Shown: piece after piece, positions 3,001 to 9,000 of the stretch
Position numbering within the stretch: the stretch's first letter is position 1
How the letters are laid out: the number at the start of each line of letters is the position of its first letter
Position numbers: made by a program
DNA from: Escherichia coli O157:H7
Lineage (GTDB): Bacteria > Pseudomonadota > Gammaproteobacteria > Enterobacterales > Enterobacteriaceae
Reading direction: 5' to 3' (one strand)
NCBI RefSeq assembly: GCF_013167455.1
Contig: NZ_CP038328.1
Length of the DNA stretch: 64,000 nt

Positions 3001-6000
3001 TTTTAACAGTATTTACCTGTAAAATTGAATAATGATGAGCGCCCTAGAAGTATCTATGTACAGAATCAGCAAGCTTCTTCAGGAAACTGGATGGAGCCAG
3101 GCTGAGCTTGCCCGTAGAATTGGTGTGACACAACAAACTGTTCAACAATGGGTCAGCGGTAAGGCTACACCTAAAGCCTCAAGTTTGGATAAACTGGTTG
3201 AGGTTTCAGGGCATCCATTGCATTGGTTTTTATTGCCTCCTGAAGAGTGTGAGCAAATTTTCACCCCTGACACGATGAAAATTGGTCCTCGCCAACGCGA
3301 ACTGCTCCAAGCTTTTAGTGCGTTTCCTGAGGAAGACCAAGAAAAAATGCTTCAAGAAATCAAAGACAAGAAAAAATCAATGGAAGAAACCATTGCTAGG
3401 TGGCTGGCGGCACAAAAAAGCCGCCGGGCGTGACCACAGTACAAGAAGAGGAGTTATGCCATGGGTACAGCCCTTTCTCCGATAGTTTCAGAATTCGAAA
3501 CTACCGAACAAGAAAACAGTTACAACGAATGGTTGCGCACTAAAGTAACGTCAAGCCTTGCAGACACTCGCCCCGCAATTCCACATGACGAGGTAATGGC
3601 TGAAATGGAAAATCTTATTGCTCAAATTGCTGTAACTAACAAGAGCGAGTAATGTTACCCATTTTATGGCTACCGTCTGCTCGCGATGATTTGCGCCAGA
3701 TCATAACTTACATCGCCAAGGAGAACCCACCGGCAGCACGTAGACTAAAAATACGCATTGAAACATCGGTATTACCTCTATCTGAGCATCCGTACTTATA
3801 TCCACCAAGCGAACGGGTTTCTGGATTGAGAGAGATCGTGACCCACCCTAACTACATAATCCTGTACAGAGTAGCTGCTTCAAGCATTGAGATTGTAAGC
3901 GTGACACATTCTCGGCGACAATTTCCCTTCTCTATCTGAGTTGAACAATTTTCATACTCCCTCTTTCGAGGGATTTTTTTGCCCAAAACAACAATTAAAA
4001 ACTGTTGACACAAAAACAGTTTTTAATTGTAGATTACATACACCAACCACCCACCCCGCCCCACAGAACGCCGGGCAATACTTCGAGTTACCAAGCAGTG
4101 GTCAGGGGGTAAGTAGCCAGCCCGAGGCGTATGAACATGACGGCAGGGTTCAACTTTAATAACTATGCAGCAGGTTTTTGTTCCGCTACCCGGCGTTAAG
4201 GGGAAATGAGGTCAACATGGATACTATCGATCTTGGCAACAACGAATCTCTGGTGTACGGCGTGTTTCCCAACCAGGACGGTACATTCACCGCGATGACG
4301 TATACCAAAAGCAAAACGTTTAAAACCGAAAATGGTGCCCGTCGCTGGCTGGAAAGAAACTCAGGTGAGTGATATGGATTTCGACACAATCATGGAAAAG
4401 GCTTACGAAGAATACTTCGAAGGCCTTGCCGAAGGCGAGGAAGCTCTCAGCTTCAGTGAGTTTAAACAGGCGCTTTCCAGTTCGGCAAAATCTAACGACT
4501 AACGGAGTTAAAGATGGAATTTAAAGATTTACTAAAAGAAATCCAGGAAATTGCAGCACATGCACTTCACCAACGTCTGAACGAAGTTGAATTAGAATCT
4601 GCAACGAAGAAATACATTGATAATATGGCTCGTAATGTGCGCGATGCGTTTACCGGATTGTACTCTGTTTCGGTAACAAACAACCAGAATACTGAAGAAA
4701 CTGCAAAGCGGATTGCCTCGGTGATGGGTTTTCATGTCGAGGAAAAGTATTCAAAAAAAGAATTCTGGAAAACTACAAAAAAATTGCAGAGCGAGAACTG
4801 TCATCTCCTGCGGCAATCGCTTCTTTCTATGAGGAAAGTTATTCAGATGACACAGGATTACCGGAACTGCTCTCATTACTTGAAAAATTCGGAATTATCA
4901 TGAAAGGGACTGCGTCGGCGGATTTCACATACTCAATGATGGCTGCTGATGGAGAGCCTTTTCCTCCCGAACTTAAAATAACCCCCGGCAATCATCCGAT
5001 GGTAACAATAAGAGCAATAGAGAATTACTGGTTTAATCCAGTTCAACAATAGTTGGTCTTTGCAATATTTTTAATGGGCCACTACGCCCTTAATCTCGGG
5101 CGGCGTTTAACTCTTTATTCAGTAAATCAGACTGATACTGATTTGGCTTTGTAATGATACTGTCAAGTTTTGATATATGAAATTCAACATGTTCTGGACA
5201 GTTAAAAATGTAATAACCGCCCTTCTCTAAAAAGCCAGAAAGAGCGTTACAGGCAGGGCATGGTTTGTTTGGCATTTTATCCTCCATTAAGGGCTGAATT
5301 AAAAATGGAGACCAACACGCTGCTACGTGTGGTCGTGCGCCGGACACAGATAAGAATCCGGCACTGACAGTTTACTGAAAGGATATATCCCTGAAAAGTC
5401 AGGGCATAACACGAAAGTGCACGGCGAAGTCCTTCTCCCTTAGAGCCGTCGTTAAATTTAATTCGACCGTGCGCTTCCGGTTGTGGCAATCCGCGAAATG
5501 GCGCGGCGGTAAGTATGGCGGGGTTATTCTTTCCCCGTTGAGGACACCGGGTTGTCAGGTTGACCATACGCTTAAGTGACAACCCCGCTGCAACGCCCTC
5601 TGTTATCAATATTCTGGTGACATTTGGCGGTATCAGTTTTACTCCGTAACTGCTCTGCCGCCCTTTTTTAAAAGTGAATTTTGTGATGCGGTGAATGCGG
5701 CTCAGCGCACGCGGAACAGTTAAATCGGTAAAGCGGTCATTTGCTGAGTAACGAGAATGCTCTGTATCCGGCGTTAATTGTTAACTGGTTAACGTCACCT
5801 GGAGGCACCAGGCACCGCATCACAAAATTCATTGTTGAGGACGCGATAATGGAAAAGTTATCATGTAATGCCAGCACGTCTGAACTTCGTTTCGAAATTG
5901 GCGTTATCACTGGAGACAAAACATTTATTGAAGACGCCATTAAGCAGAGAAAACTCGAGCAGGACCTGTTAAATGAAGTATGCATTCCTTCAATGCTGGC

Positions 6001-9000
6001 TCGTCTGGACCTGCTGCAAAAAGGATATAAACAATGAATACAACATTTGCACTCGTTCTGACAGTTTATCTTGTTTCCGGCGAATCTCTTGAGCTGGTGA
6101 CTGGCTTATACGGTTCAATGAAAGAATGCATGGCTGCAGCAGCAGAACAAAAAATTCCCGGTAACTGTTATCCGGTAGATAAAACTACTCACACTAATAA
6201 TAACGAAATACCGGCAGGACTTTAAAACAGCACCGTAATTAATATCCGGTTTCATTTTTATATGCCAGCAATGGCAGGGATTTGTTCACCCTTAAATCTG
6301 TAATGAGGTTAAAACACAATGAGTAAAATCTTTATTTGCGCTGCTATTCCTGACGAACAGGCCATAAAAGAAGATAGCGCTGTTGCGGTGGCCACTGCCA
6401 TTGAAGCCGGTGATGAGCGTCGCGCACGCGCAAAATTTCACTGGCAATTTCTGGAGCAATTCCCGGCAGCTCAGGACTGCGCTTATAAATTTATTGTCTG
6501 CGAGGATAAACCCGGCATACCCCGCCCTGCCCTCGATTCCTGGGATACCGAATATATGCAGGAAAACCGCTGGGATGAGGAGTCAGCTTCCTTTGTACCG
6601 GTCGAACCAGAATCCGATCCGATGAACGTCAATTTTGACAAGCTGTCCCCTGAAGTACAGAACGCAGTCCTGGTTAAATTCGACACATGCGAAAACATCA
6701 CCGTTGATATGGTGATTAGCGCACAGGAATTACTACAGGAAGACATGGCAACATTCGGCGGACATATCGTTGAAGCGTTGATGAAAATGCCAGAAGTTAA
6801 CGCCATGTATCCTGAACTTAAACTGCATGCCATCGGGTGGGTTAAGCATAAATGTGAGCCTGGCGCTAAATGGCCTGAAATTCAGGCAGAGATGCGCATC
6901 TGGAAAAAACGTCGCGAAGGTGAACGCAAGGAAACCGGAAAATACACGTCTGTTGTTGATCTCACCCGCGCCAGAGTCAACCAACAGAACACTGAAAACG
7001 CTGCTGAAAAAACCGGGGCTGTCACTGTTGCCATTCGCCGCGAATACAAACAGACATGGAAAACACTCGACAATGAACTGGCCTGCGCCCTCTGGCCCGG
7101 TGATGTGGATGCAGGAAACATTGACGGTACCATCCATCGCTGGGCGACAAATGAGGTTATCGACAAGGATCGCGAAGACTGGAAGCGTATCTCAGCATCA
7201 ATGCGCAAACAGCCCGAAGCACTTGGCTATGACCGTCAGACTATTTTTGGCCTTGTTCGCGAACGTCCGATCGATATTCACAAAGATCCCGTTGCACTGA
7301 ACAAATATATCAGTGAATACCTGACGACAAAGGGCGTGTTTGAACATGAAGAAACAGACCAGAGCTCTACTGATGCTCTCCAGCCGTCAGCAGCACAAAC
7401 TGCTCCAGTGGAGACGGCAGAATCCGATACTCAAAAAAATGAAATCCTGGTGGAAGCTGAACCATCTGTAGAGCGTGAAGGACCATTTTATTTCGTCTTT
7501 ACCGATAAGGGCGGGGAAAAATACGGCAGGGCAAACAAACTTTCTGGTCTGGACAAGGCGCTGGCTGCCGGCGGTACCGAAATCTCAAAAGAAGAATATT
7601 TTGCCCGAAAAAATGGCACATACACGGGCTTACCGCAAAATGTGGATACCGCTGAAGATTCCGAACAATCAGAGCCGGTAAAAGTTACCGCTGACGAAGT
7701 AAACAAAATTATGCAGGCAGCCAATATCAGCCAGCCTGACGCCGATAAATTGCTTGCTGCATCACGTGGTGAATTTGTTGAAGGGATTAGCGACCCGAAT
7801 GATCCGAAATGGGTGAAAGGGATCCAGAGTCGCGACGCTGAGGACCAGAATCAGCCCAACGTGAAACAAAATGAGCCAGAAGCGGAACAAAACAGCCCGG
7901 ATACGCAACAAAACGGGCCAGAAGAACAACAACCAGAACCAGCAGTGCAACAGGAACTGGAAAAAGTTTGCACCGCATGCGGTCAGACCGGTGGCGGCAA
8001 CTGTCCTGACTGTGGTGCGGTGATGGGGAACGCAACCTACCTGGAAACATTCGATGAAGAGAATCAGGCTGAAGCTCAGAAAAATGATCCGGAGGAAATG
8101 GAAGGCACTGAACATCTGCACAAGGAGAACACTGGCAGCGATCAGTATCACGCCAGCGATAATAAAACTGGCGAAACAGCAAATCCCTTAATTAAAGTGA
8201 ACGGTCATCATGAAATCTCATCCACCAGCAGGTTGTGGCACCATCTGATGATTGACCTTGAAACAATGGGAAAAAATCCTGATGCGCCAATAAACTCTAT
8301 AGCCGGTAAGTTTTTTGATCCGGCAACCGGAGAGATGGGGCCAGAATTCAGCAAAACTATCGATCTGGAAACCGCAGGTGGGGTCATCGATCGGGACACC
8401 ATTAAGTGGTGGCTGAAACAGTCACGCGAAGCACAATCCTCCATTCTGACCGATGAAATCACGTTGGATGATGCACTGCTGCAATTCCGGGAATTTATCG
8501 ACGAAAACTCCGGTGAATTTTTTGTTCAGGTCTGGGGTAACGGTGCAACTTTCGACAACGTGATTTTACGCCGTTCATATGAACGGCAGGGGATCCCCTG
8601 CCCGTGGCGTTACACCAATGATCGCGATGTAAGAACGATGGTTGCTCTGGGACTGGTGATGGATTTCGACGCAAGAACGACTATTCCATTCGAAGGTGAA
8701 CGCCATAACGCCCTGCACGATGCACGTTACCAGGCGAAATACGTTTCAGCCATCTGGCAAAAACTGCTCCCGAGTCAGGCTGATTTTTGATGTTCAACCC
8801 ATATCGCCGCCCACCAGCTATAGTGGCGGCGGTCATGCTGTAAAGGCACGTGACCACATGTACGAATTAACTCTATCTCCAGCAGAGATTAAAGAGATCA
8901 CGAAATACGAGCGATACACAAAACAGCAACACCAGTTAAGACTGCACGGCATCCCATTTGTAATCGGCCCTAAAAACGAACCCATAGTTCTCCGCAGGGA

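Follow-up and report, generated by a model that had tools for sequence, protein, structure and literature searches.

The locus considered here raises the question of whether a lambdoid prophage of Escherichia coli O157:H7 carries, at a chromosomal site other than that of the K-12 prophage Qin, a complete module for the inhibition of host cell division, consisting of DicF, a small RNA (sRNA), together with the protein DicB. The window, that is, the whole stretch of DNA analysed, comprises 64,000 nucleotides (nt) of contig NZ_CP038328.1 (assembly GCF_013167455.1). Sequence identity, family membership, operon anatomy, pairing potential, prophage identity and integration site were all observed directly on this DNA, and they indicate that the region is very probably a dicBF-type early-left operon of prophage Sp4, integrated at serT, which would make the division inhibitors DicF and DicB. 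The presence of dicF and dicB at this place is already known and not new, because dicB is annotated as ECs_1059 and multiple dicF copies of enterohaemorrhagic E. coli (EHEC) have been published; as given, the finding relocates this annotated gene and one published additional EHEC copy of dicF. The only part of the locus that may be new, or that may repay experimental work, is a structured RNA domain upstream of DicF.

DicF is encoded on the plus strand as a 53-nt sRNA (5611-5663) followed directly by its terminator U-run (5664-5669), a run of six T (TTTTTT) in the DNA, and was delimited by Rfam, alignment with K-12 and folding. The match with Rfam RF00039 (5612-5663, plus strand) extends over the full 52-position model and scores 76.9 bits (E = 3e-15), where 48 is the gathering score; it is one of only two RNA matches at gathering level in the 64-kb window. 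Three of the 53 positions differ from K-12 DicF, namely 1 (U to A), 12 (G to A) and 38 (G to A), and the minimum free energy hairpin of nt 15-51 (-15.5 kcal/mol versus -15.9 kcal/mol for K-12) keeps the terminator hairpin, which with the U-run makes up an intrinsic terminator and a 3' end of the Hfq type. The near-exact DicF with its terminator that a previous, sequence-only reading had placed here was thus recovered.

The predicted core of the pairing with ftsZ comprises DicF nt 25-36 (AGUUUUACUCCG) with ftsZ positions -14 to -2, to which nt 41-52 with ftsZ -28 to -18 are added. The same pairs were obtained for the window and for K-12 with RNAduplex and cofold (-34.2 versus -33.8 kcal/mol). 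The leader of ftsZ shows no difference (100% identity) in O157:H7 strains, and 5388 of 5424 genomes carry it at 99% identity or more. The change at position 38 converts a U-G wobble of the inner hairpin stem into U-A and is unpaired with ftsZ, that at position 12 gives an A-U pair instead of G-U within the extended duplex, and position 1 takes no part in pairing. Substitutions in the seed region that abolish pairing, which the sequence-only reading had named as evidence against the module, were not found, because all three changes fall outside the nt 25-36 core and leave the pairs unchanged. In K-12, the 3' part of DicF pairs with the ribosome-binding site of ftsZ, as verified by compensatory mutations, and Hfq helps in this pairing (PMC5069750, section 8). 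By homology with K-12 Qin, Sp4 DicF would act on ftsZ in the same way, and Sp4 DicB on MinC.

The second component, dicB (5849-6037, plus strand), runs from an ATG at 5849 to a stop at 6037 and corresponds to ECs_1059. Its product of 62 amino acids (aa) matches Pfam PF05358 along residues 1-62 of 62 (E = 7.7e-39) and NCBIfam NF049927 with 123.7 bits, above the cut-off of 100. About 170 phage and prophage loci, originally retrieved with other aims, also supplied DicB-like genes; of their 31 complete translations, 30 have 62 aa and one has 60 aa, at least three allele types are represented, and the allele of the window retains all 17 columns (17/17) that are invariant among nine diverse alleles. 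The gene is therefore an intact 62-aa DicB homologue, as had been claimed. A Shine-Dalgarno sequence, GAGGA, is located at 5838-5842, two bases after the right arm of the long stem of the dicF-dicB spacer. A sharp mosaic boundary coincides with the start codon of dicB: the region of non-coding RNA that includes dicF (5350-5848, plus strand, delimited by annotation and comparison) is about 94% identical to Qin, but DicB shares only 55% identity with its K-12 counterpart.

The element is Sp4, a lambdoid prophage of E. coli O157:H7 that has serT as its integration site. Positions 1-16395 of the window show 99.988% identity over 16,395 nt to strain Sakai, in which the element is annotated as "prophage Sp4, lambda-like phage", and positions 5350-6240 are 100% identical to several O157:H7 genomes. 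No intact tRNA was detected by ARAGORN in the 64-kb window. A duplicated 3' part of serT (nt 29-88), with exact identity over 60 nt to Sakai serT, lies at 10239-10298 (plus strand), between int and yccA, and represents the attachment-site end of Sp4; in Sakai the intact serT is found at the opposite end of Sp4, beside hyaA, the prophage being integrated between yccA and serT/hyaA. The designation as a serT prophage, at a chromosomal site other than that of Qin, is correct, because the 60-nt copy is present in the window and the intact gene at the far end of Sp4.

Several functions of Sp4 have been reported as defective: its repressor has no peptidase domain, its Xis is doubtful and its terminase is disrupted (PMC2669165). 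Both the window (9078-10097) and Sakai have an intact Sp4 integrase, but it is frameshifted in strain TR01 (L001 15729-16735), and this end of the prophage therefore decays in some lineages. The gene pchA (ECs_1091) is located on the same Sakai prophage Sp4, about 18 kb from dicB (L170 28366-28680) and outside the window. In the chromosomal part of the window, a full-length PyrD leader of ordinary type was identified at 37150-37223 on the minus strand (Rfam RF02373, 97.9 bits).

The gene order was established from the annotation by the NCBI Prokaryotic Genome Annotation Pipeline (PGAP) of the 100%-identical region of O157:H7 strain TR01, from a list of open reading frames (ORFs) and from the annotation of K-12 Qin. 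Upstream of the RNA region, on the plus strand, are a ydfA-like gene (4217-4372; DUF1391, 51 aa), assigned by PGAP at the identical TR01 locus and by the position of K-12 ydfA, ydfB (4374-4502; 42 aa, "protein YdfB" in TR01) and, at the position of ydfC, two ORFs of 129 aa and 50 aa (4514-5052) taken from the ORF list. No NCBIfam match was obtained for the region of these two ORFs, and the 129-aa ORF was rejected as a homologue of YdfC (BLASTP against K-12 YdfC, E = 0.40). A small antisense gene follows at 5090-5275 on the minus strand, a 61-aa ORF (ECs_1061) with CPxC...CPEH spacing, for which no family match was found. A promoter-like site of ECs_1061 was noted at 5181-5154, the gene being opposed to the early-left operon. 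Downstream of dicB, and also on the plus strand, a ydfD-like gene (6034-6225; DUF1482 by PGAP, 63 aa, "lysis protein YdfD" in other genomes) starts in overlap with the dicB stop codon (ATGA), and the distal genes of the operon, supported by the annotations of TR01 and Sakai, are an exonuclease (6319-8790), a xis-like DUF4224 gene (8858-9100) and the integrase gene int (9078-10097). In Sakai, ECs_1055 is labelled integrase and ECs_1057 exonuclease, ECs_1058 is the ydfD-like gene, and the label of ECs_1059 is "cell division inhibition protein". The Qin-like order claimed for the locus is confirmed by PGAP of TR01 and by comparison with K-12 for ydfA, ydfB, dicF, dicB and ydfD; ydfC is replaced and the DicA-type repressor stays below its cut-off (51.5 versus 101 bits). 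The locus is a variant of the Qin-type dicBF operon.

The immunity region precedes these genes. A cro-like gene is located at 2651-2923 on the minus strand (PGAP annotation of TR01 and K-12 comparison), and the intergenic region between it and the repressor gene contains an operator-like palindrome (2958-2996), the presumed equivalent of the right operator, with two inverted copies of the half-site AATAAAAAACTGT and a weaker third copy at 3005-3018. The repressor gene (3032-3433, plus strand; ECs_1069, "phage repressor protein") encodes a helix-turn-helix protein of 133 aa without a peptidase domain, as also reported for the Sp4 repressor (PMC2669165). Its top NCBIfam match is the transcriptional repressor DicA (protein 11-130, profile 9-131 of 135, E = 8.4e-14), and it is regarded as a distant relative because its score of 51.5 bits is under the cut-off of 101. 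A relB/relE-like pair (3461-3939, plus strand) is situated between the repressor gene and the left operator; the RelE/StbE match (TIGR02385) in this toxin-antitoxin pair reached 28.4 bits, with a cut-off of 27.9. The left operator is probably contained in a 40-bp perfect palindrome with TTGACA (3991-4030) that has half-sites in common with 2958-2996 and probably also holds the early-left promoter of the dic operon, equivalent to dicBp. The two palindromes, 2958-2996 and 3991-4030, which stand at either side of the immunity region, can be read as right and left operators of the DicA-like repressor, and if both are operators the dic genes would form the early-left operon of the prophage. Sequence comparison of the 3991-4030 region revealed no homology to K-12 dicBp, and the immunity specificity is therefore probably different from that of Qin.

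Two long stems flanking DicF are candidate sites of RNA processing. In the dicF-dicB intergenic RNA (5670-5836, plus strand), studied by inverted-repeat search, RNAduplex and Rfam, a closing stem surrounds an STnc100-like element. It is formed by an inverted repeat (I1) with arms at 5670-5693 and 5813-5836, 24 nt long and 92% complementary, with a duplex energy of -40.1 kcal/mol. A DicF form of 72 nt arises by RNase III cleavage downstream of the sRNA (PMC5069750, introduction); its calculated 3' end, at about 5682-5684, falls within the left arm, and the stem is the probable RNase III site that would give this end. Among 55 variants, the variation of the arms is mostly G-U compatible, with almost all changes being C/U opposite G, and some C-A mismatches are uncompensated. 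Covariation was dropped as support for the stem, given this lack of a compensatory pattern, and its support consists of conservation, stability and the published 72-nt product.

Against Rfam STnc100 (RF02076) the spacer element scores 33.6 bits (E = 1e-5), short of the gathering score of 47; the alignment covers positions 21-154 of the 206 in the model and takes in the long closing stem and the CACCNGGAGGCACCNGGCACC hairpin. It is probably a distant relative and was not filed as a member of that family. The element was also found alone in P7, D6 and a Klebsiella phage.

On the 5' side, a hairpin of about 20 bp is located upstream of the structured domain at 5407-5482 (plus strand; 5407-5429 with 5461-5482, -25.3 kcal/mol by RNAduplex), from which K-12 differs by wobble-compatible changes only. 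The 5' end of the 190-nt DicF species, calculated from its published length (PMC10448788, section 6), lies at about 5474. The hairpin is a likely RNase III site, because it places this end in a duplex, and RNase III would probably cut it to make the 5' end of the 190-nt species. In K-12, DicF is processed by RNase III as well as by RNase E, and dicBp is repressed by DicA (PMC10448788).

Between this hairpin and DicF lies a four-helix RNA domain of 115 nt ("Module A", 5480-5594, plus strand), defined on an alignment (A5) of 24 diverse copies with the structure given by RNAalifold. The fold is a four-helix junction closed by stem P1; its three hairpins have loops that do not vary, e.g. GGUUGACCAUACGC. 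Standard pairs account for 98% of the alignment cells (at most 60% in slid-partner controls), and nine pairs are changed on both sides, as compared with 2.8 +/- 1.3 in shuffles, none of the 500 shuffles reaching nine. These double-sided changes are concentrated in P1 and in P4 (5536-5542 with 5562-5568); variation is scarce in P2 and in most of P3, which for this reason are without support from covariation. A coding reading upstream of DicF (a 36-aa ORF with GTG start at 5469-5579, or a 110-aa antisense ORF) is unlikely, because the stem changes are compensatory and the loop indels are not multiples of three. The domain has no match in Rfam at E <= 10, and permissive Rfam scans of 3900-6300 and 5440-5900 returned only DicF and the sub-threshold STnc100. 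The length of the 190-nt DicF (PMC10448788, section 6) equals 6 nt plus the 115-nt domain, a 16-nt linker and the 53 nt of DicF; the domain is the 5' part of this published "long DicF".

A search of phage genomes located the domain without DicF or dicB in P1, P7, phage cdtI and Stx2c phages. In P1 and P7 it is directly downstream of the C1-controlled ban promoter, and the P1 record labels the adjacent stretch as a "dicF-like region"; in cdtI a strong PL-like promoter, itself after cI, precedes it by about 285 nt. An apparently untranslated leader of about 280 nt (L006 2220-2500) precedes the domain in cdtI-type phages and may hold more RNA structure. Two motif scans of IMG/VR yielded more than 160 loci, 163 of which were classified by terminator type, and in every sequence type an intrinsic terminator (hairpin plus U-run) is present within about 20-45 nt of the domain. 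The canonical DicF loop follows the domain in 75 loci, with dicB downstream in 65, absent in five and the sequence too short in five. Other hairpins without the ftsZ-complementary loop occupy this place in 18 loci (dicB in 16, two too short), a cdtI-type terminator in 39 (dicB in one, absent in 37, one too short) and a P1-type terminator in 17 (dicB absent in 15, two too short); the terminator is unclassified in 14 (dicB absent in seven, seven too short). Some Qin-like IMG/VR loci (L013, L024, L090 and L132) have, at the position of DicF, hairpins without ACUCCG, e.g. GGCGGAAAUGGAUAUCCGCC and GGCGGGUAU...AUACCCGCC. These alternative-loop loci retain the upstream domain, and nearly all also have the intergenic stem and dicB. 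The alternative-loop hairpins could be DicF-like sRNAs with other targets.

The Sp4 copy of dicF is one of several in the same genomes. Multiple copies have been described in the prophages of Sakai and EDL933 (PMC5069750, section 13; PMC7873438), and a later review, which cites Melson & Kendall 2019, gives four copies for Sakai and 86-24 (PMC7873438). No matches in the literature were retrieved for ECs1059 or Z1327-Z1329 by name. A megablast search with a 68-nt dicF query recovers the exact variant only, since substitutions in the other copies break the 28-nt seed words, and the copies were therefore counted again in distant mode. In the collection of complete genomes, DicF-like sequence was then detected in 4010 of 5426 genomes, in up to seven places per genome, and the O157 genomes with this exact copy have 3-5 DicF-like places each. 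The exact Sp4 variant, with A at positions 1, 12 and 38, is present in 323 complete genomes at 99% identity or more; it occurs once per genome in the listed O157 strains, and one O145 genome has it in two places. As the Sp4 copy has its own sequence variant, copy-specific detection in RNA sequencing data is possible. The annotation of dicF would also gain, the gene being unmarked in RefSeq at this site.

The operon may work as follows, on the model of K-12 Qin, from which the repression, the processing of the RNA, the need for Hfq and the inhibitory effects on FtsZ and MinC are carried over by analogy. In the lysogen, the DicA-like repressor bound to the palindromic operators would keep the promoter near 3991-4030 switched off. 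Derepression would produce one long transcript comprising ydfA, ydfB, the two ORFs, the structured leader, DicF, the stem, dicB, ydfD, the exonuclease gene, xis and int. DicF would be released either by termination at its own hairpin and U-run or by RNase III cuts in the flanking long stems, with RNase E trimming the 5' side in both cases. The hairpin loop and the 3' half of DicF, together with Hfq, would then pair with the ribosome-binding site of ftsZ and block the synthesis of FtsZ, and read-through of the DicF terminator would allow the translation of DicB, which may recruit MinC to the division site and so block septation, an inhibition expected to depend on MinC and also on ZipA.

Several points weigh against such an operon. 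RefSeq is without a dicF annotation at the site, and the K-12 protein, the one studied for MinC-dependent activity, shares only 55% identity with this DicB. The gene ydfC is replaced, the antisense gene at 5090-5275 within the operon could hinder transcription towards dicF, and neither the promoter nor the operators are related to K-12 dicBp, so that regulation may differ. The energy of the full-length DicF-ftsZ duplex was equalled by 41-65 of 500 shuffles; RNAduplex energy was dropped as a test of the pairing, and the pairing argument rests on identity to the validated K-12 pairs, because the energies only modestly exceed those of shuffles. That the Sp4 copy would inhibit FtsZ and MinC is an expectation from homology. 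The locus might be regarded as a silent relic, that is, a defective Sp4 whose operon is permanently repressed or interrupted and whose divergent DicB is inactive, with no present function. The defects of Sp4 in several functions (PMC2669165), the divergence of DicB, the oppositely oriented gene inside the operon and the frameshifted TR01 integrase all agree with this view, but every ORF of the module is intact, DicB has kept its exact length and the 17 invariant residues, and DicF and the RNA structures around it share about 94% identity with Qin, most of the stem changes being compatible with pairing. The retention of the exact DicF variant in 323 complete genomes also argues against decay, and expression of the equally cryptic Qin copy of K-12 occurs in stationary phase and in a cell subpopulation (PMC10448788); a relic without function is considered very unlikely.

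Two further explanations were considered. The primary role of the RNA may be exerted in cis, the hairpin 5626-5663 and the 115-nt domain gating transcription into dicB, the exonuclease gene, xis and int, perhaps by antitermination or attenuation, with the action on ftsZ as a secondary function that one variant of the terminator loop would have acquired. The domain shows conservation and covariation, is carried by the P1/P7 ban leader, cdtI and Stx2c phages, where DicF and dicB are missing, and is followed in every type, after about 20-45 nt, by a hairpin and U-run; 18 of 163 loci have hairpins without the ACUCCG loop, 16 of them still with dicB, and the Sp4 left operon has no recognisable N-like gene, yet the terminator must be passed to reach xis and int. 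Against this stand the lack of similarity to known RNA antiterminators in comparisons of the covariance model of the domain (R1) with the HK022 and HK639 immunity regions, the lack of an alternative pairing with the terminator common to all types (by inspection, none exists in P1), and the distance of more than 1 kb between promoter and domain in Sp4 and Qin; moreover, the domain could merely stabilise or scaffold the 190-nt sRNA. A riboswitch-like pairing of GGCGGUA of the domain with the 3' half of the terminator would be available in the lambdoid types only and not in P1, and was not adopted. A primary cis role is judged unlikely. The benefit for which EHEC retains the locus may also be other than division control, namely superinfection exclusion by DicB, acting on ManYZ-dependent entry, or activation of pchA by DicF. 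In K-12, DicB confers protection against phage through inhibition of receptor proteins of the inner membrane (10.1101/708461 / PMC6832061), and DicF activates pchA translation in EHEC, which has four copies, at low oxygen (PMC7873438); pchA itself lies on Sp4, about 18 kb from dicB. These roles in phage exclusion or virulence would, however, add to division inhibition and not replace it, and the DicF-pchA duplexes predicted by RNAduplex are long, unspecific and unlike between two DicF variants, for which reason the prediction was not used. A retention benefit of this kind in place of division control is a possibility on the unlikely side.

The division-inhibition operon of Sp4 is thus the preferred reading, and the domain upstream of DicF could be of more interest. 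The customary view of DicF is that of a 53-nt sRNA made from a precursor of 190 nt; the 5' part of this precursor is a conserved, covarying domain that also heads P1-like and other lambdoid early operons in which neither DicF nor dicB is present. The domain might be an independent, widespread phage leader RNA, of a new class of cis antiterminators or attenuators, with DicF as one variant of its terminator hairpin, whose loop came to be complementary to ftsZ; this proposal is tentative and seems quite unlikely. It is similarly doubtful that the domain controls read-through of the terminator in cis, setting the ratio of DicF to DicB and letting a left operon without N reach xis and int; it is no less likely that the domain scaffolds or stabilises a family of early-leader sRNAs whose 3' seeds vary. 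If the domain does control the terminator, this would explain how long early-left operons are expressed in phages without N protein and how the proportion of DicF (termination) to DicB (read-through) is set, and it would offer a plausible evolutionary origin for DicF.

Among the known systems, STnc100 and PasD are related, prophage-borne sRNAs (bioRxiv 10.64898/2026.05.13.724894). The spacer element of Sp4 does not stand alone as an sRNA gene and is an internal segment of the operon transcript, located between dicF and dicB. The put RNAs of HK022 and HK639 resemble the domain as structured RNAs of the early phage transcript upstream of terminators, and neither the put phages nor the domain-bearing phages have a recognisable N gene; the annotated putL-like RNA of HK639 (126 nt) is also of similar size. 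However, put consists of two stem-loops (PMC9378689) and the domain of four helices around a junction. Known put RNAs bring about read-through of terminators downstream, an effect that mutations in the zinc-binding domain of the RNA polymerase beta' subunit block. With filters off, model R1 gave a best E value of 0.36 in the HK639 immunity region, with nothing at the putL-like RNA, and of 3.7 in that of HK022; since R1 finds nothing in these regions, a put-like identity was rejected and the domain is not a detectable member of the put family.

The other dicF copies in O157:H7 prophages belong to the same sRNA family as that of Sp4 and share its lambdoid early-left position; the Sp4 copy has its own variant with A at positions 1, 12 and 38. 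The proteins Kil of lambda, KilR of Rac and Icd of P1 are small products of early operons under repressor control and block host division on induction, and DicB is like them a small division inhibitor of a repressor-controlled early operon; HK639 has an annotated Kil in the operon equivalent to that of dicB. The routes differ, as Kil acts on FtsZ and DicB, in work of the de Boer laboratory, reportedly through MinC, and a sequence relationship between Kil and DicB is not expected.

The closest relative is the DicA-repressed operon of K-12 Qin (ydfABC-dicF-dicB-ydfDE), with which Sp4 shares the order ydfA-ydfB-dicF-dicB-ydfD, a DicA-type repressor gene upstream on the same strand, the hairpin, the ftsZ-pairing loop and the long intergenic stem. 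Between the two, identity is about 84-94% over the stretch of RNA that begins about 255 nt upstream of DicF and reaches the start codon of dicB. Sp4 differs from Qin in its chromosomal site, at serT, in the unrelated ORFs and the antisense gene that stand in place of ydfC, in the relBE-like pair between the repressor gene and the promoter and in its unrelated operator and promoter sequences, and the distal exonuclease, xis and int genes are intact in Sp4, whereas in Qin they are interrupted by an insertion sequence.

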